Shown: positions 7,692 through 43,008, counted from the stretch's first letter. The stretch is 64,000 bases of DNA from Burkholderiales bacterium (GCA_044870335.1 JBIOYV010000111.1:61943-125942), one strand, 5' to 3'. Notes: generated from the letters alone by a model not told the origin. Program-made: numbers and translations.

Positions 7692-8156
7692 ATGCCTACT
7701 TTCGTCTACATGACCCGCTGCGACGGCTGCGGGCACTGCGTCGACATCTGCCCCTCCGACATCATGCACGTCGACAAGACCTATCGGCGCGCCTACAACA
7801 TCGAGCCGAACATGTGCTGGGAGTGCTACTCCTGCGTGAAGGCCTGTCCGCAGAACGCCATCGATGTCCGCGGCTACGCCGACTTCGCCCCCTTGGGGCA
7901 CAGTGTCCGGGTGCTTCGGGAAGAGGCAAAGGCGACCGTTTCATGGCGGCTCAAGTTCCGGGACGGCCGCGAGAAGAACTTCGTATCCCCGATCCGCACC
8001 ACGGCCTGGGGATCGATCAAAGGTCCGGCGGAATACGACGCGCCGCGCGCCGAGGATTTCGCGAGCCAGGAGCTCGCGCACGAGCCGACCTCGCTCAAGA
8101 TCGACGGCGGATTGCCGACGCTGCGCGCCGGCCGGCTCAAGCCCGGAGTCCTTTGA
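7692..8156 (+). CDS. aprB: adenylylsulfate reductase beta subunit
   Basis: N-terminus MPTFVYMTRCDGCGHCVDICP plus a second CxxCxxC ferredoxin motif. Classic AprB. Confidence 0.9.
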   Translation: MPTFVYMTRCDGCGHCVDICPSDIMHVDKTYRRAYNIEPNMCWECYSCVKACPQNAIDVRGYADFAPLGHSVRVLREEAKATVSWRLKFRDGREKNFVSPIRTTAWGSIKGPAEYDAPRAEDFASQELAHEPTSLKIDGGLPTLRAGRLKPGVL

Positions 8157-10000
8157 TGGGGCTTTTCGGCGGCAGGAAGACCGTTCTCGTCGACGCCGAC
8201 ATCCTCGTCGTCGGCGGCGGCATGGCGGGCTGCGGCGCGACTTACGAAAGCCGCTACTGGGGACGCGACCTGAAGATCGTGTGCGTCGAGAAGGCGAACA
8301 TCGAGAGGAGCGGCGCGGTCGCGCAGGGCCTCTACGCAATCAACTGCTACATGGGCATGCAGTGGAACGAGAACCAGCCCGAGGACCATGTGCGCTACGC
8401 GCGCAACGACCTCATGGGCCTGGTGCGCGAGGACCTGGGCTACGACATCGCGCGCCACGTCGACGGCACGGTGCACAAGTTCGAGGAATGGGGCCTGCCG
8501 ATCATGCGCGACCCCAAGACCGGCCGCTACCAGCGCGAAGGCAAGTGGCAGATCATGATCCACGGCGAGAGCTACAAGCCGATCGTCGCCGAGGCCGCGC
8601 GCAAGGCCGCGACCCAGGTCTACAACCGGATCATGGTGACGCACCTCCTGATGGACTCGGCGAAGCCGAACCGCGTCGCCGGCGCCGTCGGGTTCAACGT
8701 GCGCACAGGCGACTACCACGTGTTCCGAGCCAAGACGGTCATCGTCTGCGCCGGGGGCGCGTCGCACATCTTCAAGCCGCGCGCGGTGGGCGAAGGAATG
8801 GGGCGCACCTGGTATGCGCCGTGGAGCAGCGCGTCGGCCTACGGGCTGCCGATCCAGGTCGGAGCGAAGATGACGCAGATGGAGAACCGCATCGTCCTTA
8901 CCCGCTTCAAGGACGGCTACGGCCCGGTCGGCGCCTACTTCCTCCATCTCAAGACGTACACGCAGAACGGCTACGGCGAGGAGTACGAGAAGAGGTGGTA
9001 CGAGGACACCAAGGCCCTGGTGGGCGACTACGTCGACCGACACCCGGTGCCAACCTGCCTGCGCAACCACGCGCTCCTGAAGGAGGTCGCGGCCGGCCGC
9101 GGTCCGATCCGCATGGTGACCAAGGAGGCGTTCCAGGATCCGCACAAGGAGGTGGTCGGCTGGGAGAACTTCCTCGGCATGACGATCGGCCAGGCGGTGG
9201 TCTGGGCATCGCAGAACATCGATCCCAAGGAGATCAATCCCGAGCTCACCACGTCCGAGCCCTACGTCATGGGCTCGCACGCCACCTGCTCGGGTGCGTG
9301 GGCGAGCGGGCCGGAAGACTACGCTCCCGACGAGTATCAGTGGGGCTACAACCGCATGATGACGGTCGAGGGCCTTTTCGGGGCCGGCGACACCATCGGC
9401 GGCACCGCCCACAAATTTTCGTCAGGCTCGTTCACCGAAGGGCGCATCGCGGCCAAGGCGGCGGTGAAGTACGTGAAGGACATGAAGAACGCCCAGCCGC
9501 AGGTGAGCGAGCAGGAAGTTCGCGACCTGCGGAAAACCATCTACCAGCCGCTCGAGAACTTCCGCGTCGGCCGCAACGAGATCACCGCCGGCACCGTCTC
9601 GCCGAGCTACCTGCTTCCGATCCACGGGCTGCAGCGCCTCGAGAAGATCATGGACGAGTACGTCGGCGGCATCGGCACCAACTACATGACCAACGGCAAG
9701 CTGCTCGAGCGCGGCCTCGAATTGCTGGGCATGCTGAAGGACGACATGAACAGCATGGGCGCCGAGGACCTGCACCAGCTTCAGCGCGTGTGGGAGCTGC
9801 ACCACCGGCTGCTCGCCTCGGAGTCCGTCACCCGCCACACGCTCTTCCGCGAGGAGACGCGCTGGCCGGGGTACTACTATCGGGGCGACCACATGAAGCT
9901 GGATGACGAGAACTGGCACTGCTTCACCCTCTCTCGCTACGACCGCCATAGCGGCGAGTGGACGATGGGGAAGGCGCCGGTCTACCACATCGTCGACTAG
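8156..10000 (+). CDS. aprA: adenylylsulfate reductase alpha subunit
   Basis: FAD-binding motif ILVVGGGMAGCGA and AprA-like sequence throughout. TGATG overlap with aprB. Confidence 0.92.
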   Translation: MGLFGGRKTVLVDADILVVGGGMAGCGATYESRYWGRDLKIVCVEKANIERSGAVAQGLYAINCYMGMQWNENQPEDHVRYARNDLMGLVREDLGYDIARHVDGTVHKFEEWGLPIMRDPKTGRYQREGKWQIMIHGESYKPIVAEAARKAATQVYNRIMVTHLLMDSAKPNRVAGAVGFNVRTGDYHVFRAKTVIVCAGGASHIFKPRAVGEGMGRTWYAPWSSASAYGLPIQVGAKMTQMENRIVLTRFKDGYGPVGAYFLHLKTYTQNGYGEEYEKRWYEDTKALVGDYVDRHPVPTCLRNHALLKEVAAGRGPIRMVTKEAFQDPHKEVVGWENFLGMTIGQAVVWASQNIDPKEINPELTTSEPYVMGSHATCSGAWASGPEDYAPDEYQWGYNRMMTVEGLFGAGDTIGGTAHKFSSGSFTEGRIAAKAAVKYVKDMKNAQPQVSEQEVRDLRKTIYQPLENFRVGRNEITAGTVSPSYLLPIHGLQRLEKIMDEYVGGIGTNYMTNGKLLERGLELLGMLKDDMNSMGAEDLHQLQRVWELHHRLLASESVTRHTLFREETRWPGYYYRGDHMKLDDENWHCFTLSRYDRHSGEWTMGKAPVYHIVD

Positions 10001-30433: not shown

Positions 30434-32038
30434 ATGTTGGATTTTCTGAAGAAGGGCGACGACGGTCATCTCGACGCGTCGATGCGCACTCCGGCGTCGG
30501 CGGCGAAGCTGCTCGCCGGGATGCGCGAAGCCGATCCGGCCGCGGCGCTGGAAGAGCTCGCCGGCTGGCTCGAGAAAGGCCTGCCGAGCCACGACGCGAA
30601 ACTCCGCAGCCAGGTCCTGTCGCAGATCCACGAATCGGGCAGCGGGCATGTAGGCGCGCTTCTCGCTCGGTTTCTCGGCAAGCCGCCGGGAAGCGGCAGC
30701 AAGCCGGATCCATCGACCTGGGAAACGCTCAGCCGTTATCTCATGCTGCTGGCGCACGCGCTCTACACGTCGGCCAGGACGCCGCTGAAGGACCCCGACA
30801 GCAGCCAATCGCTCCGGCTCGTCGGCGCGGCAGACGCGGCGAGGTGCATTCATACCTGCCGAACGCTGGCAAAGGCCTGCCTCATGCGCTATCTCAGCGT
30901 TCCTGCGAAGCTCTGGCGCATGGCCTATGCCGTCCATGACAAGGCGCAGAAAGTCGGGTGCGCCGCGACGCCGGTCCACCTGCAGGGCGCGGGCCAGCCG
31001 GCGACGACCGTGACCCAGGAGCTGCTGCAGCTTTTGATGCTGCATTCGTGCGCGCCGGAAATGATGGCGCCGCGGCAGATCGAAGTGGCCGATCGCGTGA
31101 CCGAGCAGCTTGGCCAGGACTTCACGCTGCGCCCGCGCGGCGTTGCCGACATGCCGTTCTGCTTCGATCCGTCGAGCGACCTGCCGCCGCACCGGTCGAA
31201 CGGCCAGCCTTCCGGCGCGGACAGCCCCATGCGGTTCTTTGGCGCCGGCGCCGGCTTCAGCGCACTGGAGCGGCTCCACAAGGAGCTCGCGACGGCCAAG
31301 GTCGAGGACATCAAGGCGTTCGGCAAGGACATCGATCCTTACACCCAGATCTCGGCCACGCGGCATCTGCTGGCGTTCTGGGGTCCGACGTGCCCGTACA
31401 CGCCCCCGGCGCGCTCGCCGGCGTCGGGCGAGCTGAGCGTGATCCACGGCCATGCGCGGGTGTGGCAGGCCCTGTGGAGTACCCGGTCCACCAGCACCGA
31501 GCTGACCCTGGTGGAAGACGGCGCCTCCGGGCCGGAGGCGCCGGACACCTGGGCGCTGCACGACACTGGCGGCAACGAGCTGGGCGCCGAAATTCCGAAC
31601 GCTTCGAGGGAGCGGGCACGCTGCGGCAACGTGGTCGGCGTCTCGATGAACGGCAGCGACGACTATTGGGTGGGCGTGATCCGCTCGGTGCACGCCAGGC
31701 GCGACGGCTGCCTGCACGCCACGATCGCGATCCTGAGCCGCGCTCCCCACGCCGTGGAGCTGCGCACGCTCTATGCGCACGGCGAGGAGAGCGGCTATTC
31801 GGCGGAAGCCGCGCGCGAATTTGCCTTCAATCGGGCCTGCGCGATCGTTCTTGCGGACGGTTCGGCGGAGTCGCAGACGCCGAACCTGCTGCTGCCCGCG
31901 GAAGGCTGGAAGGAAGGCCGCGTCTACGAAGTGGCCGTGAACGGATCGACGCGCCAACTGCGCGGCGCCCAGCTCCTGCGCCGCGGCGACGACTACGTGC
32001 GCGTCACCTTCGAGTGGCTGGCCGGCGCAACGCCTTGA
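30434..32038 (+). CDS. hypothetical protein, possibly with a PilZ-like C-terminal domain
   Basis: 534 aa with no confident family match. The C-terminal region (RRDG...NGSDDYWVGV...VRVTFEWL) weakly resembles c-di-GMP-binding PilZ folds. Confidence 0.55.
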   Translation: MLDFLKKGDDGHLDASMRTPASAAKLLAGMREADPAAALEELAGWLEKGLPSHDAKLRSQVLSQIHESGSGHVGALLARFLGKPPGSGSKPDPSTWETLSRYLMLLAHALYTSARTPLKDPDSSQSLRLVGAADAARCIHTCRTLAKACLMRYLSVPAKLWRMAYAVHDKAQKVGCAATPVHLQGAGQPATTVTQELLQLLMLHSCAPEMMAPRQIEVADRVTEQLGQDFTLRPRGVADMPFCFDPSSDLPPHRSNGQPSGADSPMRFFGAGAGFSALERLHKELATAKVEDIKAFGKDIDPYTQISATRHLLAFWGPTCPYTPPARSPASGELSVIHGHARVWQALWSTRSTSTELTLVEDGASGPEAPDTWALHDTGGNELGAEIPNASRERARCGNVVGVSMNGSDDYWVGVIRSVHARRDGCLHATIAILSRAPHAVELRTLYAHGEESGYSAEAAREFAFNRACAIVLADGSAESQTPNLLLPAEGWKEGRVYEVAVNGSTRQLRGAQLLRRGDDYVRVTFEWLAGATP

Positions 32039-32744
32039 AGAGCGCCGGTTCCCAGTAGCGCACGGCGAGCATCACGCTGAGCGGGTAGCGCTGCTCGAGC
32101 GGCAGGCGCGAGTCGGCACGGTGCTGGTCGTCGTATTCGCGCGCCACCTGCTCGAGGCGCCGCAGCAGCGCCATGCGGGCTTCGCCCGAGACCCGGACCG
32201 TGACCATGCGCATGAACTCGCCTGGACCCTCGAACGCGTGATTGAAGAAGTCCGGCGCCTGCGAGCGCGCGTAGCGCATGATCGGCCCGTCCGGGTTCCA
32301 GGCGAAGGTGCGCGCGAGGCGCAGCCGGATGCGGTTGTTCTCGTGCACCTCGACGATGCCGATGCGCTCGAGCTTCAGCAGCAGCTTGACGCACTGCGCC
32401 TCGTCCAGATCGTAGAGGTGGACGATCTCGTCCACGCGCATCTGCTGGATCGCGCAGATGGCGACCAGGAGCAGCGCCGGTTCGGCCATCAGCTCCTGCT
32501 CCTGCTGCGGCGTGAGCCGGCTGATGAGCTTGTCGTCGCGCGGGGCGCCGCGCGCCAACTCGGCGAGGTCCACCTGGAGCAGGTCGCAGATCGAGTCGAG
32601 CCGCTCGAGCGTGCAACTCTTGGTCGCGAAGATGCGCTTGACGGTGGCCTCCGAGATCTTGAGCGCGCGTGCGACCTCGGCGTAAGTCATGCCGCGCGCC
32701 TTGAGGTGCATCCGGAGGCCATCGAATACGAACGCAGAGGACAC
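32004..32744 (-). CDS. XRE-family (Cro/C1 HTH) transcriptional regulator with a C-terminal domain of unknown function
   Basis: HTH LKARGMTYAEVARALKISEATVKRIF. GTG start at 32744 lies 6 nt after GAAAGG. Convergent with the upstream gene and overlaps it by 35 nt. Confidence 0.75.
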   Translation of the reverse strand: MSSAFVFDGLRMHLKARGMTYAEVARALKISEATVKRIFATKSCTLERLDSICDLLQVDLAELARGAPRDDKLISRLTPQQEQELMAEPALLLVAICAIQQMRVDEIVHLYDLDEAQCVKLLLKLERIGIVEVHENNRIRLRLARTFAWNPDGPIMRYARSQAPDFFNHAFEGPGEFMRMVTVRVSGEARMALLRRLEQVAREYDDQHRADSRLPLEQRYPLSVMLAVRYWEPALFKALRRPATRR

Positions 32745-32855
32745 GGCGGGCCTTTCGGGCGAGAAAGTTTCACCGGATGATACTTTAGAGTCGATATTCT
32801 TGAACCGCGTCGCATCATATTGAACGCGACTAGGGGGTCGGCATACTGCCCGCCC

Positions 32856-35387
32856 ATGAGCCGTGCACTCCCCTACCTCTGGTACCCGCTCATCTTTGCG
32901 GCGGCGATCGCCGGCTTCGCCGCCATGCTTTCGGCCGGGTTACCGCTTGCCGCCGCGACCTATGCGCCGGTCGCCGCCGCGGCGCTGGCGGTCGTGGTGC
33001 TCGAGCTCGCCTTTCCCGAGCGCCTCGATTGGCGTCCGCGGCGCGCGGACGTCGCCGCCGATGCGGCCTTCATGGCGTTCGTGCAGATCCTGCTGCCGCG
33101 GGTGCTGGCCGCGTCTGTGGTTCTCGGGCTCGCCGCCTGGGCGCACGAGCGTGCGCCCAGCCCTTGGTGGCCGCACGACTGGCCGCTCGGCGGGCAGATG
33201 GTGCTCATGGTTTTGGCGGTGGACTTCCTGCGCTATTGGCTGCACCGGGCCTGCCATGCCTATCTGCCGCTCTGGCGCCTGCACCAGGTCCACCACTCGC
33301 CGGACATCCTCTATGCGCTCAACGTCGGGCGCTTCCATCCGCTCGAGAAGGCGCTGCATTTCGCCTGCGACAGCGCGCCGTTCCTGCTGCTCGGCGTGGC
33401 GCCCGAGGTGGTCGCGGGCTATTTCCTCCTCTACGCAGTGAACGGTTTCTTCCAGCACAGCAATGTGCGCCTGCGCTACGGCTGGCTCAACTACGTGGTC
33501 GGCAGCGCGCAGACGCATCGCTGGCACCATGCCCGCGATCCGCGCCTGGCGCACTGCAACTTCGGCAGCAGTACTCTCCTCTGGGATCTCGCCTTCGGCA
33601 CCTGGCAGCTGCCGCAAGACGCGCCGGTAGACGACATCGGCATCATGGACCGCGCCTATCCCAGGGGCTTCTGGGCGCAGATGGGAGCACCGTTCCGCGC
33701 CGCAGCGCCGCGGTACGGCATCGCCCGGCGCATCGCGGATCTCGTCATCCCCGCGTACCTGCGGCTGGCGAGCATCGTGCATTCCTGGCGGCTCGGCCGC
33801 GCGGCGCGCAACCCGATGCGCGTCCAGAGGGCGCTGCTCGAGCGGATCCTGCGCGATAACCGCGCCACTTCGTTCGGACGCCAGCACGGCTTTGCGCGTG
33901 TTCGCGACTATGCCGGCTACGTGGGCGCGGTGCCGGTGATGGATTTCGAGGCGCTGCGTCCGTATATCGAGGCCGAGATCGAGCGCGGGGAGCAAGCCCT
34001 GACCGCCGAGGCGCCGCGGCAATACCTGCGCACCAGCGGCTCGACCGGAAAGCCGAAGGACATTCCACTCACTGCGACGCACCTGCGCGCGCTGCGCGCC
34101 ATCCAGCGCACCTCCGTCGCGTTCCAGCACCGCGTCTGCCCGGAAGCGTTCCGCGGCAGCATCCTCGCCATCGTGAGCCCGGCGGAGGAGGGCAGGCTCG
34201 CGAACGGCAAGCCCTACGGCGCCGCCTCCGGCATCGTCGCCGCCGGCACACCCGCGCTGGTACGCGAGAAGTTCGTGCTGCCCGCGGACGCGCTGGCGGT
34301 TGCCGACGCGCGCGTGAAGTACCTGCTCATCCTGCGCCTGTCGCTGGCGCGGCGCGATATCACCTATTTCGGCTCGGCGAACTCGACCACGCCGCTCGCA
34401 CTGATGAAGCTCTATCGCGAGTACCACGCTGAGCTGATCGCGGACGTGCGCAACGGCGGGTTCTTCTGCGCCGGCAAGCTTGCGGCCGGCACGCGTGCGG
34501 CGCTGCGCCGACGCCTCGAGCCGGACCCGGCGCGCGCCGACGAGCTGGCGGCGCTGCACGCCGGGGGTGCCGTGCCGCGAATGGCCGAGCTGTGGCCCGA
34601 GCTGCGCATGGTCGTGACCTGGACCTGCGGCAGCGCGGGCGTGAGCGTCGCCGCGCTGCGGCGCGAGCTCGCGCAGCGCACGCGCGTCTTCGAGCTCGGG
34701 TACGTGGCGAGCGAGTTCCGCGGCACGCTGACGCTCGGCAGCCAGGCCGGCACCGGCCTGCCGACCTTCGATACGCATTTCTTCGAGTTCGTCGAGCGTG
34801 CGAAATGGGACCGCGGCGAGCCCGAGTACGTAACGCTCGGCGAGCTGCGCAAGGGCGTCGACTACTACGTGATCGTCACGACGGCGGCGGGCCTGTACCG
34901 CTATTTCATCAACGATCTCGTCCAGGTCACCGGCTTCCTGCACGCGACGCCGCTTTTCAGATTCATGCAGAAGGGAAAGGGCGTGACCAATATCACCGGC
35001 GAGAAGCTCTACGAGTCGCAGCTGCTTCAGGCGGTCCGCGCCGCGATGGGGAAGCTCGGCCTCGATGCGCGCTTCGTGATGATGCTCGCCGACGAGGCGG
35101 CCTGCGCCTATCGCCTCTACGTCGAGCCCGACCGCGTCCCGGCGGTCGCGGCGGCGCGCCTCGCTGGCGAGGTCGATGCGCGGCTGCGCAAGCTCAACGT
35201 CGAATACGAAGGCAAGCGCGACAGCGAGCGGCTCGCTGCGCCCAGCGCCGCGTGGTTGCGTCCCGATACCGGTGAGGCATACAAGCGCCATTGCGTGGCC
35301 CGCGGACAGCGCGAGGGGCAGTTCAAGTGCCCCGTGCTTGCCTATCGCCGGTCCTTCGGCTTCGACCTGGAAGCCTACGTGCAATGA
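32856..35387 (+). CDS. fusion protein: N-terminal fatty-acid hydroxylase / sterol desaturase family membrane domain plus C-terminal GH3 (acyl-acid amido synthetase) family domain
   Basis: His-box motifs HRACH, HQVHHSP and HRWHH in the N-terminal TM domain. GH3-like motifs in the C-terminal ~560 aa (SGSTGKPK, YASSE-like, GLYRY). A single continuous frame of 843 aa. Confidence 0.8.
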   Translation: MSRALPYLWYPLIFAAAIAGFAAMLSAGLPLAAATYAPVAAAALAVVVLELAFPERLDWRPRRADVAADAAFMAFVQILLPRVLAASVVLGLAAWAHERAPSPWWPHDWPLGGQMVLMVLAVDFLRYWLHRACHAYLPLWRLHQVHHSPDILYALNVGRFHPLEKALHFACDSAPFLLLGVAPEVVAGYFLLYAVNGFFQHSNVRLRYGWLNYVVGSAQTHRWHHARDPRLAHCNFGSSTLLWDLAFGTWQLPQDAPVDDIGIMDRAYPRGFWAQMGAPFRAAAPRYGIARRIADLVIPAYLRLASIVHSWRLGRAARNPMRVQRALLERILRDNRATSFGRQHGFARVRDYAGYVGAVPVMDFEALRPYIEAEIERGEQALTAEAPRQYLRTSGSTGKPKDIPLTATHLRALRAIQRTSVAFQHRVCPEAFRGSILAIVSPAEEGRLANGKPYGAASGIVAAGTPALVREKFVLPADALAVADARVKYLLILRLSLARRDITYFGSANSTTPLALMKLYREYHAELIADVRNGGFFCAGKLAAGTRAALRRRLEPDPARADELAALHAGGAVPRMAELWPELRMVVTWTCGSAGVSVAALRRELAQRTRVFELGYVASEFRGTLTLGSQAGTGLPTFDTHFFEFVERAKWDRGEPEYVTLGELRKGVDYYVIVTTAAGLYRYFINDLVQVTGFLHATPLFRFMQKGKGVTNITGEKLYESQLLQAVRAAMGKLGLDARFVMMLADEAACAYRLYVEPDRVPAVAAARLAGEVDARLRKLNVEYEGKRDSERLAAPSAAWLRPDTGEAYKRHCVARGQREGQFKCPVLAYRRSFGFDLEAYVQ

Positions 35388-36484
35388 AGCTCGAATCGCT
35401 CCAGGCAAGCGCGCTCGCCATTTCCTTCCGGCACTCGTTCAGGCATGCGTCGGCCGAGCGTTCTGCCACGCAGGCGATCTGGGTCGCGGCACGCGCGTGC
35501 GGCGCCGCAGGCTACGGCGAGGGTTGTCCGCGCGAGTACGTCACCGCCGAGAGCGTGCGGAGCGCGCAAGTCTTCGTGGCTGCGCATCTGCACGAATGGA
35601 GCGGCGAGCTGCTCGACGCGCCGTGGTTGCGTGGCTGGACGGCGAAGCGCGAACGCGAGATCGACGCTCATCCCGCGGCGTGGACGGCGGTGGAGCTCGC
35701 TATGCTGGACCTGCTGGGGAAGACCGGGTCCAGGCCGGTGGAGGCGCTGCTCGGACTGCCCGCCCTGGCGGGTCGCTTCCAATATACGGCGGTGCTCGGC
35801 GACGCGCCGCCTGCCGCCTTCGAGGCGCAGCTTGCGCGCTACCGCGGCGCCGGTTTCCGTGATTTCAAGATCAAGCTCTCCGGCGAGCCGGCACGCGACG
35901 CGGCGAAGGTGAGCGTGCTGCGAGCCGCGGGCATCGCGCCCGAGCGCGTGCGCGCCGACGCCAACAATCTGTGGCCGGACGCGGGCGCCGCGATCGCAGC
36001 TCTCGAGGCGCTCGATTATCCCTTCGCCGCGCTCGAAGAGCCGCTGCGCGCCGGCGACCACGAAGGCATGGCGCGCGTCGGCCGGGCGCTCGGGAGCGCC
36101 ATCATCCTCGACGAAAGCGTGGCGCGCGCGAGCCAGCTCGAAACGTTGCCGGCGCATGGCAGCTGGATCGTCAATTTGCGGATCTCGAAAATGGGCGGTG
36201 TCCTGCGATCGCTGGAGTTCCTGAACGAGGCGCGCCGACTCGGTGTGCCAGTCGTCATCGGTGCGCACGTCGGCGAGACCAGCGTGCTGACACGCGCCGC
36301 GCTTACCGTGGCGAGCGTTGCGGGCGACGTTCTGATCGCGCAGGAAGGCGCGTTCGGCACCCACCTCCTCGAGCGCGACGTGGCCGAGGCGCCGCTCATG
36401 TTCGGCGCCGGTGGCGCGCTGGAAGTCGCGCCGGCGATGGCGGCAGCGCCGGGCTGGGGCCTCGCGATCCGTGAGCCCACGTAG
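35384..36484 (+). CDS. enolase-superfamily enzyme (mandelate racemase/muconate lactonising / dipeptide epimerase-like)
   Basis: Barrel-domain motifs (KIKLSG..., DANN, LEEP, DES, KMGG). ATGA overlap with the fusion gene. Confidence 0.85.
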   Translation: MKLESLQASALAISFRHSFRHASAERSATQAIWVAARACGAAGYGEGCPREYVTAESVRSAQVFVAAHLHEWSGELLDAPWLRGWTAKREREIDAHPAAWTAVELAMLDLLGKTGSRPVEALLGLPALAGRFQYTAVLGDAPPAAFEAQLARYRGAGFRDFKIKLSGEPARDAAKVSVLRAAGIAPERVRADANNLWPDAGAAIAALEALDYPFAALEEPLRAGDHEGMARVGRALGSAIILDESVARASQLETLPAHGSWIVNLRISKMGGVLRSLEFLNEARRLGVPVVIGAHVGETSVLTRAALTVASVAGDVLIAQEGAFGTHLLERDVAEAPLMFGAGGALEVAPAMAAAPGWGLAIREPT

Positions 36485-38195
36485 CCTCTTCGCCTGGCTG
36501 CTCGCCGCCGTGCTTGCGGTCGCCAGCGCAGGGTGCACCACCGTAGTCGGCCAGTTTTTCCTGCCGAAAGAGGGCGTGCGGGAAGCGGGCTACGCGGTCG
36601 AGCGGCAAAAGGGCGTCGCCTTCGATACTTCCGACGGCATCGCGCTGGTGGCCGATCTTTATCGACCCAGAACGCAGGAGAAGAGGCCGACGATCCTGGT
36701 GCGAATTCCATTTTCCAGCACCTTCAAGAACCGCCTCGCGGTCGATACCGTCGGCGAGTTCTGGGCGAGTCGCGGCTACAACGTGGTGATCCAGGGAACT
36801 CGCGGGCGCTACAAATCGGGCGGTGAGTTCTATCCGCTGCTCTACGAAGAGGCTGACGGGCGCGAAACGCTGCAATGGCTCGCGCGCCAGCCCTGGTTCG
36901 ACGGCCGCCTGGGGATGTGGGGCGGCTCGGCGTTCGGTCATACCCAGTGGGTGCTGGCGGGTGACGAGGCCCCCGGACCGGGCGTGCTCATGATCCAGAT
37001 CGCCAGCACCAGCTTTCGCGAGATGTTCCATCCGGGAGGCGCGTTCTCGCTCGAGTCCGCGCTGTTCTGGGCGGCGCGCAGCCACGGACGCGAAGACCGC
37101 GATCCCTCGTTCGACGCGCTCGAGCGCGGGTTCGCCGGGTTTCCATTGATCGAGGCCGACGACCGCGCCGTCGGCGACGTCGCCTTCTTCAACGACTGGG
37201 CGCGTCACGTCGACGCGGACGATTACTGGCGTCGCATCGACGGGACCGATCGTGCCGGCACGCTCAGGGCGCCAGTGCTCCTCATGGCGGGCTGGTATGA
37301 CCCGTTCCTGCCGACGCAGCTGCGCGACTTCGAAACCGTGCGGCGCGAAGCGGCGCCCGGCGTCGCGGCGGGCAGCCGGCTCATCGTCGGACCCTGGACG
37401 CACGCCGACCCGGTGCGGTTTCCCGACGGCTCGACCGCGGGCGACTACCGGCCAGCGAGCCTCGCGCCGAGCCTGCCGTGGTTCGACCATCATCTGCTCG
37501 GCAAGCCGCTCGCCCCATCGCTTGCCGCGCCGGTGCGCATCTACGTCATGGGCGAAAACCAATGGCGCGACGAGCGGGAATGGCCGCTCGCCCGCGCACG
37601 TTACGTACCCTATTACCTGGGAAGGGGTGGCCGCCTAGCGCAAAGCCCGCCGGGCGATGAGCCACCGGACTCCTACGTATGCGATCCGCGGCAGCCGGTA
37701 CCCTCGCGCGGCGGCGCCATGCTCGGTCCGCGCGCCGGCATAGCATTGCAAAACGACATCGAGGCACGCACCGACGTGCTCCTCTACACCACCGCGGCCC
37801 TCGAGCAGGACACCGAAGTCACTGGGCCGATCCGGGCGCTGCTCTACGTGTCCACCACGGCGCCAAATACGGATTTCACCGTCAAGCTGGTGGACGTCCA
37901 CCCGGACGGCAAGGCGTACAACATCTCCGACGGCATCCTGCGGCGCGCGTATCCCGAGCAGGCGCGCGAAACCCCGCAGGAAATCGTCGTCGAGCTCTGG
38001 CCGACCAGCATGCTCTTCCGGCGCGGCCATCGCGTGCGCGTCGAGGTCTCGAGCAGCAACTATCCGCGCTACGACCGCAATCCGAACACCGGCCGCGACA
38101 TCGCCACCGAAACCGAGCCGCGGCCGGCGACGCAGACCGTGTTCCACAGCGCCGTGGCGCCGTCGCGCATCATCCTGCCGCTGGTCCCGCGCTAG
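36471..38195 (+). CDS. CocE/NonD-family (S15 X-Pro dipeptidyl-peptidase-like) hydrolase, lipoprotein
   Basis: Lipobox LAVASAGC. GxSxG-like motif GGSAFG. C-terminal beta-sandwich. GTG start at 36471 assumed; an ATG at 36411 is an alternative. Confidence 0.75.
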   Translation: MSPRSLFAWLLAAVLAVASAGCTTVVGQFFLPKEGVREAGYAVERQKGVAFDTSDGIALVADLYRPRTQEKRPTILVRIPFSSTFKNRLAVDTVGEFWASRGYNVVIQGTRGRYKSGGEFYPLLYEEADGRETLQWLARQPWFDGRLGMWGGSAFGHTQWVLAGDEAPGPGVLMIQIASTSFREMFHPGGAFSLESALFWAARSHGREDRDPSFDALERGFAGFPLIEADDRAVGDVAFFNDWARHVDADDYWRRIDGTDRAGTLRAPVLLMAGWYDPFLPTQLRDFETVRREAAPGVAAGSRLIVGPWTHADPVRFPDGSTAGDYRPASLAPSLPWFDHHLLGKPLAPSLAAPVRIYVMGENQWRDEREWPLARARYVPYYLGRGGRLAQSPPGDEPPDSYVCDPRQPVPSRGGAMLGPRAGIALQNDIEARTDVLLYTTAALEQDTEVTGPIRALLYVSTTAPNTDFTVKLVDVHPDGKAYNISDGILRRAYPEQARETPQEIVVELWPTSMLFRRGHRVRVEVSSSNYPRYDRNPNTGRDIATETEPRPATQTVFHSAVAPSRIILPLVPR

Positions 38196-38207
38196 CCACT
38201 CCAAGCT

Positions 38208-39311
38208 CTACCGCAGCGCGCTGTAGACCTCGGCGAGCGAGCGCTTCCCGCCTTGTCCGGCGGCAAGTGCGAGCGACGCCCGGGCCAGCTTCTCCGCATC
38301 GCCCGCCGCGATCTCGGCCGCCAGGGCCTGCGCTTCCGCGCTGGTCAGCGAGCGCACATGGATTCGGGCGAAGCAGCGTCCCGGGCGGATCAGCGCGTCG
38401 TCCAGGTCGCCGACGTTCGGCAGGTTGGTCGAGAAGATGATCTTGCGTCCCTGCGCGCGCACCACGCCGTCGGCGATGGCGAGAAAGCGGTGCAGATGCT
38501 GGTTGCCGTCGGCGCGCGGCTTGAGCAGGTGGTCCGCGTCCTCGACGATGAACGCTTCATCCTCGCCGGTGATGAATTTGACGAAGATCTGGTCGCTGGA
38601 GAGTGCCCTCATGTCGCCGGTGTACATGGCGCGTGCTTCCTCGCCCTTGCGCCGCGACATCTCGCCGAGGATGGCGCGGATCAGCCGCGTCTTGCCGGTG
38701 CCCGGCGGCCCCTGCAGCACGAGCACGGTTTCCGGCGCGGCCAGGTAGCGCGCGATAAAGGGTTTCACGCCTTCCCTGATCTCGGGATAGGCGCGGTCGC
38801 GCAGGTCGTCGTCGGCCATCTCCTCGATCGACGCGCTCTCCAGGTCGTTACCCGAGAGAAAGTGCCAGTCGATCGAGAACATCGGCTCGGTGATGCGGGT
38901 CGAGCCGGCCTTGTCGAGCAGCCGCTGCTTTGCGGCCTCGGCGCGCGCCAGGTCGGCCGCCCAGATGTAGAAGGAGCAGGAGCAGTAATCGGCCTTGCGG
39001 CTGCCGTACGCGGCGACGAACAGCCCATCGCCGTCGAGGAGCATCGCCTCGGCGTGGATGCGCTCTGCGCGCCAAGCCGGGTCGAGCGCGATCGCGTCGA
39101 GCAGCACCTCGAGCTCGACGCGCGCTGCGAAGCGCAGCACACGGTAAGCGGGGTAGCGCGAGACGCCGTCCTCGAGGGCACGGGCCATGCGGTTCTCCAG
39201 CACCAGGGCGCCCAGGTAGTTGACGTGCCGCGTCAGCCCGCTGAACTGCTTGTATTGGTCGTTTTTCATGTCTCTCACAAAAAAACGGCCGACCCAAGGG
39301 CCAGCCGTCAA
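38208..39311 (-). CDS. AAA+ family ATPase with a ~190-aa N-terminal domain of unknown function
   Basis: Walker A GPPGTGKT, Walker B FIVEDAD, sensor/arginine finger region. TTG start overlaps the SPFH gene stop (TTGA). Confidence 0.8.
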   Translation of the reverse strand: MTAGPWVGRFFVRDMKNDQYKQFSGLTRHVNYLGALVLENRMARALEDGVSRYPAYRVLRFAARVELEVLLDAIALDPAWRAERIHAEAMLLDGDGLFVAAYGSRKADYCSCSFYIWAADLARAEAAKQRLLDKAGSTRITEPMFSIDWHFLSGNDLESASIEEMADDDLRDRAYPEIREGVKPFIARYLAAPETVLVLQGPPGTGKTRLIRAILGEMSRRKGEEARAMYTGDMRALSSDQIFVKFITGEDEAFIVEDADHLLKPRADGNQHLHRFLAIADGVVRAQGRKIIFSTNLPNVGDLDDALIRPGRCFARIHVRSLTSAEAQALAAEIAAGDAEKLARASLALAAGQGGKRSLAEVYSALR

Positions 39312-40453
39312 CGGATCTTCACCAGATCCTTCAGCACCGCGTCGAGGCCACCGAACACCGAGATCTTGTCGATCTTCTCGGTAACCTTCTCCAGAGTCTC
39401 CAGCTCCTTCAGCCGCAGCGCGGTCGGGTTGTCTTCCATCACCCGGGCGGTGTTCAGCAGCGAACGGGTAGCCGAGGTTTCCTCACGGCGGCGGATCACG
39501 TTCGCCAGCGCGGCCTTCTCGGCCTCCACCACCTTCGCCAGGATCACCTTCATCTCACCCGGCAGGATGATGTCCTTCACGCCGACCGAGTCGACTTCCA
39601 GGCCGAAGCCCTCCACGCGGCGCTTGATGTGCTCCGCCACCACCTGGTCGATCAGCCCCTTGTTCTCGAGCAGCTCGTCCAGGGTACGGGTACCCACCGC
39701 GGCACGCAGGCCGAACTGGAGCTCCTTGTACAGGTAGTCCGCCGGCTTCGCCTGCTTGCCGAACGCCACCAGCACGTCGGTCACACGGTAGCCCGCGTTC
39801 AGGTTCACGCGCAGCGGGACCTTGTCCTTGGTCAGGATTTCCTGACCCGCCACTTCCAGAACCTGCAGGCGCAGATCCACGAACTCGACGCGCATGTCGC
39901 GGCCGAAGCGGTAGAAGGCGCGCAGGCCGGCATCCAACACGTATGCCAGCTTGCCGTCGACGTATACGACGCCCACGTTGAACTGCGGCACCTGCACGCC
40001 GTACACGTCTTCAGCGCCGGGCACCTTCGCCTTGAAGCCGTTCGCAGTCAGAGTGATCAGCTGCGGTACCAGCTTCGGGTCGACGGTGAAGTCGGTCGCG
40101 ATGTCGACGCGCTCGAACTCCTGTTCGAGGTAGCCCTTGAAGTACAGGCGGCGGGTGTTCGGCGCCAGCATCTCGGCGAGCACGCCGTTCTCGACGCGCA
40201 GGCCGACCTCGGCCGTGCCGAGCTCGACCACGTGGAACTCGCGCGCCACGGCTTCCGGCTCCGCCTTCACCAGGAACTCGGCCAGGCGGTGCTCGAAGCG
40301 CGGCTGTGCCAGACCGAACTTCTCGACGGTCAGGCGGTGCAGCGGGTCGAAGCGAACGTGCTCGCCCGGACGCAGGATCTCGACGAAGTCGCCGCGCTCG
40401 AACAGCAGCGCGCGCTCATCCTTCTTCACATGAAACTTCCGAAACAGCATCAT
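39308..40453 (-). CDS. SPFH/band-7 (slipin-type) protein
   Basis: SPFH domain followed by a C-terminal coiled coil. RBS AAGGAG lies 7 nt before ATGATG at 40453. Confidence 0.85.
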   Translation of the reverse strand: MMLFRKFHVKKDERALLFERGDFVEILRPGEHVRFDPLHRLTVEKFGLAQPRFEHRLAEFLVKAEPEAVAREFHVVELGTAEVGLRVENGVLAEMLAPNTRRLYFKGYLEQEFERVDIATDFTVDPKLVPQLITLTANGFKAKVPGAEDVYGVQVPQFNVGVVYVDGKLAYVLDAGLRAFYRFGRDMRVEFVDLRLQVLEVAGQEILTKDKVPLRVNLNAGYRVTDVLVAFGKQAKPADYLYKELQFGLRAAVGTRTLDELLENKGLIDQVVAEHIKRRVEGFGLEVDSVGVKDIILPGEMKVILAKVVEAEKAALANVIRRREETSATRSLLNTARVMEDNPTALRLKELETLEKVTEKIDKISVFGGLDAVLKDLVKIR

Positions 40454-40714
40454 TTGTTTTCTCCTTTGTTTCTCCCTTAAAGAAACCACTTCTTAAAAAA
40501 ATCGGGAATCCGGCCTCCCGGGCGCCCGACGGGCTCCGCCGCGCACGCGGGGGAAAGCAGCGGTGCACCTCACAGAGATCCTTCCTGTGAATGCAGCGTT
40601 GCCTCGCCCGCAGGCGCCGCACGGCGCACTCGGCCTGGAACCCGGTGCGTGAGCGCGATGCTCTGCGCACACGCTGAAGCCGGCCCCGTACTGCGTTACT
40701 GCAGCCAACGTTAC

Positions 40715-40788
40715 AAGTTGGAGCGGGATTCGAACCCGCGACAGATCGGTTTTCAGCCGATTGCTCTACCCGTCTGAGCTATCCAGAT
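40715..40788 (-). tRNA. tRNA-Phe(GAA)-like. Two acceptor-stem mismatches, no encoded CCA. Possibly a pseudogene.
   Basis: D-arm GCTCAGACGGGTAGAGC, anticodon arm ATCGG-CTGAAAA-CCGAT and T-arm GCGGGTTCGAATCCCGC read by hand. Its first nucleotide is shared with the CCA end of the adjacent tRNA-Met. Confidence 0.5.
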
Positions 40789-40862
40789 GGTGGCGAGAGT
40801 GAGAGTCGAACTCACGACCTCCGCCTTATGAGAGCGTTGCTCTACCGCTGAGCTATCTCGCC
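40788..40862 (-). tRNA. tRNA-Met(CAT)
   Basis: Acceptor GGCGAGA/TCTCGCC, anticodon loop CTCATAA, T-loop TTCGACT, A73 then CCA. Confidence 0.7.
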
Positions 40863-41311
40863 CAACATTCGTCGCTCCCACGCCGCGGTACACGCCACGC
40901 CGATGTTCCAGGCAGGCGCGCCAGGGAGGACTCACGAGCCTCGCCCGCTGCGAACGCGTTCACGAAGAATTCTTGCTACGGATGTGGCAAAGCTTTGGGG
41001 GGACCTGCCGGAGTCGCACCGGCACTTGCGGATTCACATTCCGCTGTGCTGCTGTTACACCAAGATCTCCATCGAATCGGTGATGGCGCGCCTGACAGGA
41101 CTCGAACCTGAACCGACGGATTACCCGGGCATTACTCCGGGCCGCGCTGCGCTTGGAAACGCGCTTCCCTTCAGAACCGTCATCGGACCCTGTCGGTGCA
41201 TCCGCAACCATGCCCGCTCACGCGTTTGCAAATCCGCCTCCGCTCTTAACGGCACCCTTCGTCACTCGTTTTGGGTGTGCACTTTCCCTGTTGTGCGACA
41301 GGCGCTTGCTC

Positions 41312-41387
41312 TGGCTGTCCAGGCAGGCTTCGAACCTGCAGCCCGCGCCTTAACAGGGCGCCGCTCTACCGGTTGAGCTACTGGACA
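41312..41387 (-). tRNA. tRNA-Asn(GTT)
   Basis: Full cloverleaf: TGTCCAG-TA-GCTC-AACCGGTA-GAGC-G-GCGCC-CTGTTAA-GGCGC-GGGCT-GCAGG-TTCGAAG-CCTGC-CTGGACA-G-CCA (76 nt). Confidence 0.85.
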
Positions 41388-41394
41388 AAAGGAC

Positions 41395-41470
41395 TGGTAC
41401 CGGCCCGTGGTCTCGAACCACGCACCTCCCGCTTATCGAGCGGGTGCTCTTCCGGATGAGCTAGACCAGT
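41395..41470 (-). tRNA. tRNA-Ile(GAT)-like (unusual C33)
   Basis: Acceptor ACTGGTC/GGCCGGT with two G-U pairs. Anticodon loop TCGATAA. T-arm CGTGG-TTCGAGA-CCACG. CCA encoded. Confidence 0.6.
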
Positions 41471-41473
41471 GTC

Positions 41474-41548
41474 TGGCGGGGGCGCCTGGATTCGAACCAG
41501 GGACATCCGGCGTCAGAGGCCGGCGTTCTGCCGCTGAACTACGCCCCG
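41474..41548 (-). tRNA. tRNA-Gln(CTG)
   Basis: Anticodon arm CCGGC-CTCTGAC-GCCGG. T-arm CCTGG-TTCGAAT-CCAGG. C1-C72 mismatch. CCA encoded. Confidence 0.7.
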
Positions 41549-41550
41549 GC

Positions 41551-41626
41551 TGGCGCTTCCCCTCCGTTTCGAGCGGAGCTCTCCGGATCTTCAAACCGGC
41601 GCTGTCACCAGACCAGCTAGAGAAGC
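41551..41626 (-). tRNA. tRNA-Phe(GAA)-like with a non-canonical T-loop (CTCGAAA)
   Basis: Acceptor GCTTCTC/GGGAAGC. Anticodon loop TTGAAGA with a 31-39 mismatch. T-arm CTCCG-CTCGAAA-CGGAG (C54). Confidence 0.55.
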
Positions 41627-41632
41627 GTGAAT

Positions 41633-41708
41633 TGGTACTCGGTGATGGGGTCGAGCCATCGTCCTCCCGCTTGTGAGGTGGGCGCTCTTCGCACTGAGCT
41701 AACCGAGC
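41633..41708 (-). tRNA. tRNA-Val(CAC)-like with a non-canonical T-loop (CTCGACC)
   Basis: Acceptor GCTCGGT/ACCGAGT. Anticodon loop CTCACAA. T-arm GATGG-CTCGACC-CCATC. Confidence 0.6.
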
Positions 41709-41711
41709 ATT

Positions 41712-41787
41712 TGGTCGGCGCGGCAGGAGTTGAACCTGCAACCTTCTGATTAAGAGTCAGCTACTCTCGCCATTGAGTTACGCGCCG
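41712..41787 (-). tRNA. tRNA-Lys(CTT)
   Basis: Acceptor CGGCGCG/CGCGCCG. Anticodon loop CTCTTAA. T-arm GCAGG-TTCAACT-CCTGC. Confidence 0.7.
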
Positions 41788-41799
41788 TGTAGATAGTTT

Positions 41800-41875
41800 T
41801 GGCGGCACCGGCGGGACTTGAACCCGCGACCTCCTGCTCGACAAGCAGGCACTCTGTCTTCTGAGTTACGGCGCC
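41800..41875 (-). tRNA. tRNA-Asp(GTC)
   Basis: Acceptor GGCGCCG/CGGTGCC. Anticodon arm CCTGC-TTGTCGA-GCAGG. T-arm GCGGG-TTCAAGT-CCCGC. Confidence 0.8.
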
Positions 41876-41881
41876 ATTGAG

Positions 41882-41959
41882 TGGTACCTCCGGAAGGATT
41901 CGAACCCTCGGCCTCGCGGTTCGTAGCCGCGCGCTCTGGTTCCGCTGAGCTACGGAGGT
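41882..41959 (-). tRNA. tRNA-Arg(ACG)
   Basis: Acceptor ACCTCCG/CGGAGGT. Anticodon arm CGCGG-CTACGAA-CCGCG. T-arm GAGGG-TTCGAAT-CCTTC. Confidence 0.8.
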
Positions 41960-41964
41960 GTTGA

Positions 41965-42051
41965 TGGTTGAGCGGGAAGGATTTGAACCTTCACGGAACT
42001 GGCCGACCTCGGGGTTACGGCGCGGTGCCCTGCCTCATGGGCGTCCGCTCG
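41965..42051 (-). tRNA. type-II (long variable arm) tRNA-like gene, 87 nt. Anticodon arm not resolvable. Possibly a Tyr/Leu/Ser-type pseudogene.
   Basis: T-arm GAAGG-TTCAAAT-CCTTC resembles the E. coli tRNA-Tyr T-arm. Acceptor CGAGCGG/CCGCTCA with a C1-A72 mismatch. CCA encoded. No complementary anticodon stem found. Confidence 0.45.
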
Positions 42052-42057
42052 GTTGTA

Positions 42058-42134
42058 TGGTCTCGCCGGCAGGATTCGAACCTGCGGTCTCCTCGTCCCG
42101 AACGAGGCGCGCTGGCCGGCTGCGCTACAGCGAG
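42058..42134 (-). tRNA. tRNA-Pro(CGG)
   Basis: Anticodon arm CCTCG-TTCGGGA-CGAGG is identical to the E. coli tRNA-Pro(CGG) loop. T-arm GCAGG-TTCGAAT-CCTGC. Acceptor CTCGCTG/CGGCGAG. Confidence 0.85.
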
Positions 42135-42147
42135 GGAAGAAAATTGC

Positions 42148-42222
42148 TGGCATTCCCGGCCGGATTCGAACCGGCATCCACGGCTTGAAGGGCCGCGGTC
42201 CTGACCGTTAGACGACGGGAAC
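42148..42222 (-). tRNA. tRNA-Glu(TTC)
   Basis: GTTCCCG-TC-GTCTAACGGTCAGGAC...CCTTCAA...GCCGG-TTCGAAT-CCGGC-CGGGAAT-G-CCA. Closely parallels E. coli tRNA-Glu. Confidence 0.85.
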
Positions 42223-42361
42223 GTCGTAAATCGCGGGCGCAAGCCCGCCACCCCGCCGCGCGGCCCATGGGCCAACCGAGGGCACGTTGCGCGCGGCGGG
42301 GTCGTTTGCCACATCCAAGTTGTAAAAGAGCGGCGCGAGCTTTCGCTCACGCGAAAAAATC

Positions 42362-42438
42362 TGGTGCCCCACCCGGGATTCGAACCCGGAGCAGCGTGTT
42401 TCTGAGACACGCGCGTATGCCGATTCCGCCAGCGGGGC
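42362..42438 (-). tRNA. tRNA-Leu(CAG)-like lacking the long variable arm (77 nt). Atypical, possibly a pseudogene or non-canonical tRNA.
   Basis: Leu-type D-arm TG-GCG-GAATCGGCATA-CGC. Anticodon arm CGTGT-CTCAGAA-ACACG. Only a 5-nt variable region. T-arm CCGGG-TTCGAAT-CCCGG. Acceptor GCCCCGC/GTGGGGC. Confidence 0.6.
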
Positions 42439-42496
42439 GTTCGGGTCGCGGCACTCGGAAAATGCCGCGACCGGAATGCCGGTCCGCGAAGGCAAC

Positions 42497-42540
42497 AAAA
42501 AGCCCGGGGACCTTGCGGCGCACCCGGGCTCGGACGGACG
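42497..42540 (-). terminator. rho-independent terminator (minus-strand sense), copy 2 of a repeated ~45-bp element
   Basis: In minus-strand sense: hairpin gcccgggtgcgccgcaaggtccccgggc followed by tttttgt. Shares the consensus aCAAAAAGCCCGG...CCGGGCTyGGAyGG with the element at 42713. Confidence 0.6.
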
Positions 42541-42712
42541 ACCAGCGATTACTTGATCGCTAGAAGGCCTCCTCCGCTCGGTGCGCGCGCGTATCCGCCT
42601 CGCATGGCGCGATGGGCTTTCGCTGTTGCTCGAGTCGCAAATGCCGGTTCATCGAAATTCGATCCATATCCGTTCTCCTAACGCCGTGCTTGCAGCGGCG
42701 TTGACGCCCCAG

Positions 42713-42756
42713 AAACAAAAAGCCCGGAGCGCTCGCGCGGTCCGGGCTTCGGATGG
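42713..42756 (-). terminator. rho-independent terminator (minus-strand sense), copy 1 of the repeated element
   Basis: In minus-strand sense: hairpin gcccggaccgcgcgagcgctccgggc followed by tttttgtttc. Confidence 0.6.
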
Positions 42757-42817
42757 GCGCAAAGCGCTTACGCGATCTTCGTCTCCAGATCGGCGTCTCT
42801 ATCAAGTCGCTTCGGTT

Positions 42818-42848
42818 GCGTCGTGTGCATGTGCAAGGGCGCGCATTG
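42818..42848 (-). promoter_or_regulatory. strong sigma70-like promoter (TTGACT-N16-TACAAT) pointing toward lower coordinates. Embedded in a palindrome tcttgac-N9-gtcaaga.
   Basis: Minus-strand sense reads ctcTTGACTttggatctgtcaagacTACAATgcg. The same region carries TTGACA hexamers in plus-strand sense upstream of the 43009 gene. Confidence 0.55.
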
Positions 42849-43008
42849 TAGTCTTGACAGATCCAAAGTCAAGAGAATTTCTTGACACCGCCGCAGCCGC
42901 GACGAGTTCTAAGCCGAGGGTGCGCAAAAGGCAGTACGACCTGCGCCTGGAAATAAGTAGGTCCGAGGGATCGCTTTCGAAGGCGCAGAATTTAGACAGA
43001 GTGTTCCC

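Follow-up and report, generated by a model that had tools for sequence, protein, structure and literature searches.

A stretch of 64,000 nucleotides (nt) from a Burkholderiales bacterium (GCA_044870335.1, JBIOYV010000111.1:61943-125942; hereafter the window) carries a dense array of tRNA genes upstream of, and on the same strand as, a gene for a slipin, an SPFH/Band-7 protein. We consider it probable that this array is a lineage-specific accessory tRNA operon of the L-array kind, housed in the structured leader of the slipin gene, and that it holds a reserve set of tRNAs tied to an RNA-damage or translation-stress module. The architecture is conserved in dozens of soil Burkholderiales-like contigs, and the array shows presence/absence polymorphism between close relatives. 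Covariation supports the tRNAs, two further leader elements (E4 and E6) and a long-range stem that closes around the array. A preliminary description made from the sequence alone had noticed the array; its nesting in a slipin leader and the leader nature of its last two 'tRNAs' were invisible at that stage.

ARAGORN predicts 14 tRNA genes in the 64 kb; all are minus-strand genes and fall within 40715-42438. The Rfam RF00005 gathering score (29 bits) is passed by 13 of the 14, at 45.9-69.1 bits; relaxed thresholds add a Tyr-like unit just below the cut-off (41968-42051, 28.6 bits) and still give the array Phe no tRNA score whatever. The total is approximately 14-15 tRNA genes in 1.72 kb (Table 1), each isotype is present once in the array, and cloverleaf drawings place an encoded CCA on 13 of 14 units. 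The dense same-strand array first described is thus real, and its spacers of 2-13 nt in the head-to-tail block were given correctly, although the block has 11 units rather than 12. A unit taken to be an undecodable type-II tRNA is tRNA-Tyr(GTA): it aligns end to end with the tRNA-Tyr(GTA) of sister arrays and differs by one substitution, which breaks an anticodon-stem pair. Both tRNA-His(GTG) and a 222-nt tRNA-like element (E3), which lies in the 242-nt gap between Asn and His, had been overlooked. The deviations reported for single units recur in our analysis: the cloverleaf drawings contain the C54 T-loops of Phe (CTCGAAA) and Val (CTCGACC) and the C33 of tRNA-Ile, Leu(CAG) has a 5-nt variable loop and no long variable arm, and acceptor mismatches are found in Gln (C1.C72), His (A2.C71) and the last unit. 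Measured against U33, T54-U55-C56 and a class-II Leu, the array is therefore not canonical, with C33 in Ile, C54 in Phe and Val, G55 in His and a class-I Leu. The proposed fit of anticodons to favoured codons also holds, given that the codon read by the array anticodon is the commonest one for 13 of 13 amino acids represented (codon usage of 30 window genes).

Table 1 Features of the array, the slipin leader and the adjoining genes, in order of transcription (window positions).
Feature	Position	Strand	Description
Sigma-70-like promoter TTGACT-16-TACAAT	42845-42872	-	10/12 matches; candidate start of the whole transcription unit
Leader module 1	42713-42830	-	20-codon open reading frame (ORF; ATG 42830, TAA 42768), terminator-like hairpin 42748-42721, U-tract
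Leader module 2	42494-42667	-	35-codon ORF with Shine-Dalgarno site (ATG 42667, TAG 42560)
tRNA-Leu(CAG)	42362-42438	-	Class I, 5-nt variable loop, A73, CCA; Rfam 56.3 bits
Terminator-like hairpin after tRNA-Leu	42333-42352	-	Position conserved across loci
Closing stem, 5' arm TTGGATGTGGCAAA	42305-42318	-	Complementary to 40991-40980
Head-to-tail block	41312-42222	-	11 units; gene order matches sister arrays
Glu(TTC)	42222-42148	-	
Pro(CGG)	42134-42058	-	
Tyr(GTA)-like	42051-41965	-	
Arg(ACG)	41959-41882	-	
Asp(GTC)	41875-41800	-	
Lys(CTT)	41787-41712	-	
Val(CAC)	41708-41633	-	
Phe(GAA)	41626-41551	-	
Gln(CTG)	41548-41474	-	
Ile(GAT)	41470-41395	-	
Asn(GTT)	41387-41312	-	
E3	41084-41305	-	222 nt; acceptor GCGCCTG/CAGGCGC, D arm, T arm, G73-CCA
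tRNA-His(GTG)	40996-41069	-	G-1 (41070), C73, T-loop TGCGACT (G55), A2.C71; 45.9 bits
E4	40863-40995	-	Conserved structured non-tRNA element, T-arm-like hairpin
Closing stem, 3' arm TTTGCCACATCC	40980-40991	-	
X1	40788-40862	-	First leader tRNA-like unit; Rfam 69.1 bits
X2	40715-40788	-	Terminal tRNA-like leader unit, without CCA, 261 nt upstream of slipin
E6	40454-40714	-	Rod-like structured domain, ~240 nt; matches in 57 loci
Slipin, SPFH/Band-7 protein	39308-40453	-	381 aa; directly downstream of the leader, same strand
Intrinsic-terminator-like hairpin	39284-39309	-	At the slipin stop codon
AAA+ ATPase	38208-39269	-	Downstream of slipin in a subset of homologous loci

A metagenome scan with the slipin returned 80 loci at 51-98% identity (here and below, loci from all searches bear L numbers). 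In 52 soil-metagenome loci, with slipin homologs at 51-92% identity, the sequence extends 650 nt or more upstream of the slipin homolog; 51 of the 52 have a tRNA or tRNA-like unit on the strand of slipin within 1 kb upstream, the exception being a truncated match, and none of 456 predicted tRNAs lies on the opposite strand. Homologous loci hold 1-20 units (20 in L036) in a conserved order, namely Leu(CAG), then Gly, Glu, Ala, Pro, (Tyr), Arg, Asp, Lys, Val, Met, Thr, Phe, Gln, Ile, Asn and His, then two terminal units, and the 616 nt from His to the slipin start can be aligned as DNA across most loci. The units first listed as Met and as a second Phe (X1 and X2) belong to this conserved leader. 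X1 resembles an elongator-type tRNA-Met(CAT) with CCA in the clade of the window and has a 4-6-nt 'anticodon' loop in other clades. X2 is not a duplicated Phe gene but a tRNA-like leader unit with an anticodon free to vary: the D arm, the T arm and positions 32, 33, 37 and 38 of the anticodon loop are conserved, its acceptor stem covaries (GGA/TCC versus TTCCA/TGGAA), and 20 different triplets occupy the 'anticodon' in 47 loci. No column complementary to the triplet was found from -260 nt to slipin +45, and the simpler reading is neutral drift of three unconstrained loop bases. X2 matches b7a-tRNA, the predicted 'band-7-associated tRNA'.

The remainder of the leader is structured as well. E4 has nhmmer matches in 51 loci, and RNAalifold (alignment A1) predicts 22 pairs, 9 of them with double changes. 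For E6, 54 pairs are paired in 93.7% of cells, compared with 37-47% when slid, 33 pairs have double changes, and none of 500 shuffles reaches the observed values; its 3' end holds a terminator-like hairpin (40520-40503) with a U-tract, followed by the slipin ribosome-binding site. E3 combines a 15-nt 'anticodon' loop with an insert of ~135 nt in the variable region; one compensatory pair is seen among its copies, L012 has a shortened copy (2486-2555), and E3 does not fold with better energy than shuffled sequences do (z = 0.11). Group I intron, tmRNA and other known RNAs were considered for E3 and set aside for want of an Rfam match, and neither E3, E4 and E6 nor the closing stem described next matches a family in Rfam 15.

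The array itself is enclosed by a 12-bp long-range stem. Equivalent arms form a duplex of 11-17 bp in 25 of 27 loci, spanning 588-2567 nt and enclosing 7-17 tRNAs, and the ends of the stem differ between loci in a compensatory way; in the array-less L047 the arms stand 23 nt apart as a plain hairpin, with a compensatory T>C/A>G change. Hence, the array sits in the loop of a conserved hairpin. That the closing helix is an RNase III-type processing site is conjecture.

Upstream of the array, the promoter motif recurs in L020 and, on sequence reading, in L001. The ORF of leader module 2 is followed by a terminator-like hairpin AGCCCGGG...CCCGGGCT (42530-42501) and a U-tract, and this hairpin, loop sequence included, is conserved in more than 20 loci and in the array-less L047 and L001. 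An ORF-plus-hairpin module like module 1 is found in most homologous loci, and the ORF stops 15-28 nt ahead of the hairpin in both window modules and in most homologous loci. The two tandem modules may be translation-coupled attenuators, which is a plausible reading. G+C-rich DNA easily gives chance open frames. In total, four terminator-like hairpins lie upstream of or inside the unit, and their fit to an array that would be silent by default is suggestive only.

The unusual features of the array tRNAs recur across homologs. Of 24 Leu(CAG) homologs, 23 are class I and 23 have A73, the anticodon stem has many compensatory changes, and the window copy, read in sequence, has a D-arm nearly identical to that of genuine tRNA-Leu; E. 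coli leucyl-tRNA synthetase is not known to require the long variable arm. C33 is present in 17 of 29 Ile homologs, and 20 of 29 units with a GAA anticodon (terminal leader units counted in) have the T-loop CTCGAAA, ATCGTAA or ATCGAAA. The Val T-loops listed begin in the majority with A or C, not T, His homologs often combine G55 with A32, and the great majority of Ala copies are without C56. Given that the same 'defects' occur in all loci, they are traits, not decay. Compensatory changes maintain the cloverleaf (10 of 23 pairs in Phe and 12 of 21 in Ile alignments), and the array Phe is nearly invariant in 22 of 23 aligned loci, with slipins 71-100% identical to that of the window; the remaining unit, from L076, is another tRNA. 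Conservation extends to the synthetase identity elements: G3:U70 in 12 of 12 Ala homologs, G-1 with C73 in 29 of 30 His, C1:G72 with A73 in 26 of 26 Pro, an unpaired 1:72 with G73 in Gln, and U1:A72 with G73 in Asn. By these elements the array RNAs are predicted to be aminoacylatable, and they look selected for charging.

These data bear on two alternatives. One is a decaying relic, in which horizontally acquired, once-functional tRNA genes drift as pseudogenes; the damage and unit losses specific to the window (given below), the rapid gain and loss of units with unrelated genes inserted in sister arrays, and the low Rfam scores of His, Ile and Val, with none for Phe, would all be expected of it. 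We nevertheless regard it as improbable, given the near-invariant Phe, the compensatory stem changes, the conserved CCA, anticodons and identity elements, and 'defects' that are identical in all loci. The other places the array RNAs outside translation, as cofactors, decoys or sensors that act with slipin and the RNA-repair module, for example as bait for toxic tRNases or guides for a ligase, like YrlA. X1 and X2 are clearly non-decoding tRNA mimics in a shared transcript, several families lack the T54, U55, C56 or U33 that ordinary tRNAs keep, the array Phe fails the Rfam tRNA model entirely, and YrlA and b7a-tRNA offer precedents. However, anticodons and identity elements are strictly conserved in the array proper and not in X2, each amino acid has a single unit that fits the codon use of the host, and tRNAs of a comparable array in Anabaena are aminoacylated (PMC8421152), which makes this alternative rather unlikely. 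As a separate observation, anticodons have shifted at conserved positions of some sister arrays: a TTA (ochre-suppressor-like) unit stands in the place of Asn and Trp(CCA) in that of Glu, Arg has GCG rather than ACG, and an unusual A34 Thr(AGT) is found in several loci (L036 4438-4513; L041 2565-2639; L014 288-366; several loci for Thr(AGT)).

The array is accessory. The adjacent gene for an FAD-dependent oxidoreductase (DAO) finds 11 loci, all in Burkholderiales or betaproteobacterial metagenome-assembled genomes (MAGs), of which L001, L002, L004 and L011 alone have the full 10 kb on the array side. None of the 11 has a tRNA on the array strand; the sole match, in L010, is a prediction on the other strand, within the DAO gene. 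L001, the closest relative, runs collinear with the window to either side and has ~380 bp where the window has ~3.3 kb of array and slipin. Still present in L001 are the leader hairpin, a portion of a 24-nt motif, a small LuxR/GerE-type gene (67 aa) and, behind the latter, the AAA gene (7991-9051), but neither array nor slipin. It is this collinear, array-less relative that identifies the array as accessory. L020 shares the DAO-flanked chromosomal context of the window but is without Asp, Ile, Asn and E3, which indicates fast turnover of units. A core housekeeping tRNA operon with lineage-specific oddities, one of the two possibilities first put forward, would suit the chromosomal metabolic neighbourhood, the encoded CCA and the fit of anticodons to host codon usage. 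It is very unlikely, given that neither the closest syntenic relative nor any of the 11 loci that share DAO has the array, that unit content is 1-20 among homologs, and that the window array is without Gly, Ala, Ser, Thr, Cys and Trp and without any second isoacceptor.

The other possibility first put forward was an acquired booster of codon usage. Phages and plasmids commonly carry tRNA arrays (PMC8421152; PMC12286853), and E3 is 93% identical to a copy at another array position in L054 (1275-1501), where the slipins are only 72% identical, which suggests mobility of this sub-element between distant loci. A codon-usage booster or anti-defence tRNA island borne by a phage or mobile element is still hard to credit. 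The window has 62-71% G+C and ordinary metabolic genes, and the composition of the array (G+C 0.62-0.66) is close to that elsewhere in the window (0.64-0.71). Megablast of the array found a single tRNA-sized match of 56 bp in plasmids and none in phages, viral contigs and phage records contain nothing that matches the slipin, and no integrase, transposase or phage gene is found among 20 window genes scanned against Pfam, which include all genes flanking the array. Exact-protein look-ups of window genes found none on record. The suggestion that the array is mobile or accessory thus survives in its second half, through relatives without the array, and not in its first, and an acquired booster on a mobile element is unsupported, given that there is no viral or phage match and that the anticodons suit the host's own codon usage.

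Other differences between loci were also seen. A 6.2-kb block (32022-38207) with an HTH (helix-turn-helix) regulator, a fatty-acid hydroxylase-GH3 fusion, an enolase-superfamily protein and an S15 peptidase is absent from the otherwise collinear L001. Sister arrays contain inserted protein genes: an opposite-strand OmpA-like secreted protein between Ile/Asn and His in L014, L015, L018 and L022, and further a 600-aa ORF of lower G+C, an ORF6N-like protein and a substrate-binding protein (L043 7535-9458; L039 200-729; L082 1635-2721). Sister arrays appear to be insertion hot spots.

The connection to RNA repair comes from the slipin. On sequence reading it has no transmembrane segment, and its N-terminal 150 aa match no family; the AlphaFold2 model has a mean pLDDT (predicted local distance difference test) of 60.6 with a disordered N-terminus. 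PADLOC finds no defence-system match for slipin and P-loop-level matches only for the AAA protein, which has an uncharacterised 190-aa N-terminus, and NCBIfam gives only weak HflK/FtsH-like matches. In L047 (10001-11569), the full slipin gene is directly preceded by a second, partial copy of its N-terminus (residues 1-136, 60% identity).

Among cultured bacteria, which have homologs over the full length, the same slipin family occurs in RtcR/sigma-54/RtcB operons of Burkholderia cepacia-complex species. The order in B. cenocepacia (L092) is a divergent rtcR (PF06956 together with a sigma-54 activator domain), TGGCACG-N4-TCGCT, a leader that includes an X2-like cloverleaf with a GAAA tetraloop where the 'anticodon' would be, slipin, rtcB and RlaP. 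In E. coli (L093/L094), an island between yjbD and lysC consists of TGGCACG-N4-TCGCA (sigma-54-like), a leader, slipin, RlaP and a zeta-toxin gene; the 530-nt leader carries a T-arm-like GGGTTCGATTCCCAC, no RNA is annotated there, and slipin with its upstream leader is found in 1629 of 5426 complete E. coli genomes (30%). RtcB also lies next to the doublet of terminal units in L075 and L076. Judged by these homologs, the slipin family belongs to Rtc-type RNA-repair systems. Sequence profiles of E4 and E6 fail to detect the B. cenocepacia or E. coli leaders, so that leader homology beyond X1/X2 is unproven in these species.

The locus shares features with several known systems. The association of Band-7, b7a-tRNA and RtcB is a prediction that was never validated (bioRxiv 10.1101/312249). 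The likeness lies in a tRNA-like unit upstream of and co-oriented with a soluble Band-7/slipin gene, with homologs beside rtcR, rtcB and RlaP; the window leader differs in adding 13 apparently chargeable tRNAs, the closing stem, E4 and E6, and the window is without RtcB, RtcR and a sigma-54 promoter, sister loci having a small LuxR-type regulator instead. A tRNA-like noncoding RNA stands directly upstream of the Band-7 gene in the window, in 51 of 52 loci and in B. cenocepacia, whereas an adjacent RtcB, other RNA ligase or repair gene is lacking in the window and present in L075, L076 and L092 and, through RlaP, in L093.

An experimental parallel comes from Anabaena, in which the trn L-array, rtcB, a slipin (42-fold) and an AAA ATPase are jointly derepressed once the repressor TrcR is deleted (PMC10272220), and in which the tRNAs of the L-array become charged and help cells to survive translational stress (PMC8421152). 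L-arrays lie beside rtcB or are regulated along with it, and that of Anabaena is co-regulated with slipin and the AAA ATPase. Like them, and by the features used to define them (PMC8421152), the array is long, co-oriented, closely spaced and non-periodic, patchily distributed and absent from close relatives, with about one tRNA per amino acid and some pseudo-members. Unlike them, array and slipin here are physically one unit with a shared structured leader and systematic loop deviations, there is no HNH endonuclease, and the host is a soil betaproteobacterium. The tRNA array unit of Tran et al. (PMC4758250), with at least 20 tRNA genes at 2 or more per kb, is reached here in density and, with 14-15 units, not in number; the sister array L036 has 20.

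Other likenesses are more distant. The Y RNAs YrlA/YrlB (rsr-yrlBA-rtcBA operons, RF02553) are also tRNA mimics in RNA-repair operons, but X1 and X2 are full cloverleaves, compared with a Ro-binding stem plus a tRNA-like domain in YrlA; RF02553 scores 28.1 bits against a gathering cut-off of 69, and no Ro60/TROVE (Rsr) protein is among the 20 window genes scanned against Pfam. GOLLD and ROOL are large structured noncoding RNAs next to tRNA arrays, and GOLLD sometimes has tRNAs nested in a linker (PMC12286853; Morgado 2020 cited therein), whereas the context here is chromosomal rather than phage and the RNA is the leader of a protein gene; Rfam searches gave no GOLLD or ROOL match in the window region (E<=10) or the array-less L047 (E<=5). 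As in the processing stems of rRNA operons, sequences flanking a block of stable RNA genes form a long-range helix, but the helix here encloses tRNAs and has 11-17 bp, and RNase III cleavage is conjecture only. We found no description of array, leader and slipin as one unit, of the closing stem or of E3, E4 and E6 in the accessible literature, outside which the original b7a-tRNA prediction lies.

An accessory reserve operon in the slipin leader could work as follows. Transcription would start at the sigma-70-like promoter and pass the two short-ORF-plus-terminator modules, the class-I tRNA-Leu(CAG) and the 5' arm of the stem, inside which would lie 12 tRNAs, one per amino acid and each for the host's commonest codon, together with E3. 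After the 3' arm would come E4, X1, X2, the rod E6, slipin and its terminator, with the AAA+ ATPase gene next. The leader terminators would keep the unit mostly silent, with read-through upon damage to translation or to the tRNA pool, such as ribotoxins or antibiotics might cause. Aminoacylatable reserve tRNAs would be released by RNase P and RNase Z, the altered T- and anticodon loops may make these different substrates from housekeeping tRNAs, and the tRNA-like X1/X2 and E6 leader may stay with, or act alongside, the slipin mRNA or protein. We infer induction of the array by stress and, from the missing isotypes and array-less relatives, redundancy with housekeeping tRNAs.

Several observations weigh against this reading. 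Units of the window are damaged (a broken stem in Tyr, A.C in Val, U.U in Phe, and the acceptor stem of X2), Gly, Ala, Thr and Met have been lost relative to sister arrays, and the non-T54, G55 and C33 loops could lower function rather than tune it. Genes for rtcB, rtcR and RlaP are all absent from the 64-kb window, and a search near its array found no sigma-54 motif, so that the link to repair rests on homologs at 50-67% identity. The relatives are MAGs and metagenome contigs of uncertain completeness, and the rest of the genome, on which redundancy with housekeeping tRNAs depends, lies outside the 64 kb.

A bolder version, possible but on balance doubtful, makes the whole locus an emergency translation module. 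Leader peptides and terminators would sense stalling or tRNA damage, and read-through would free a full set of chargeable tRNAs, which, through their non-T54, G55, C33 and C34, would evade toxins of the kinds, common among Burkholderiales, that cut T-loops or anticodons. A cage-forming slipin, together with the AAA+ ATPase, would assemble with the tRNA-shaped X1/X2-E6 RNA into a ribonucleoprotein for RNA repair. tRNA-cleaving contact-dependent inhibition toxins, one of them a T-loop cutter, have been described for Burkholderia (PMC9086364); as a reason for the altered loops they are only a lead.

For the role of accessory tRNA arrays, the only experimental clue has been co-regulation with rtcB and slipin in one cyanobacterium. 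Here, many soil Burkholderiales-like contigs combine an array, a tRNA-mimic leader and a slipin in a single conserved genetic unit, and accessory tRNA arrays are thereby physically linked to the response to damaged tRNA. E3, E4, E6 and the closing stem are candidate new structured RNA elements. The homologs in the Burkholderia cepacia complex and E. coli are tractable systems in which one could test the b7a-tRNA prediction, the part that Band-7 proteins play in RNA repair, and loop-altered tRNAs as toxin-resistant spares.

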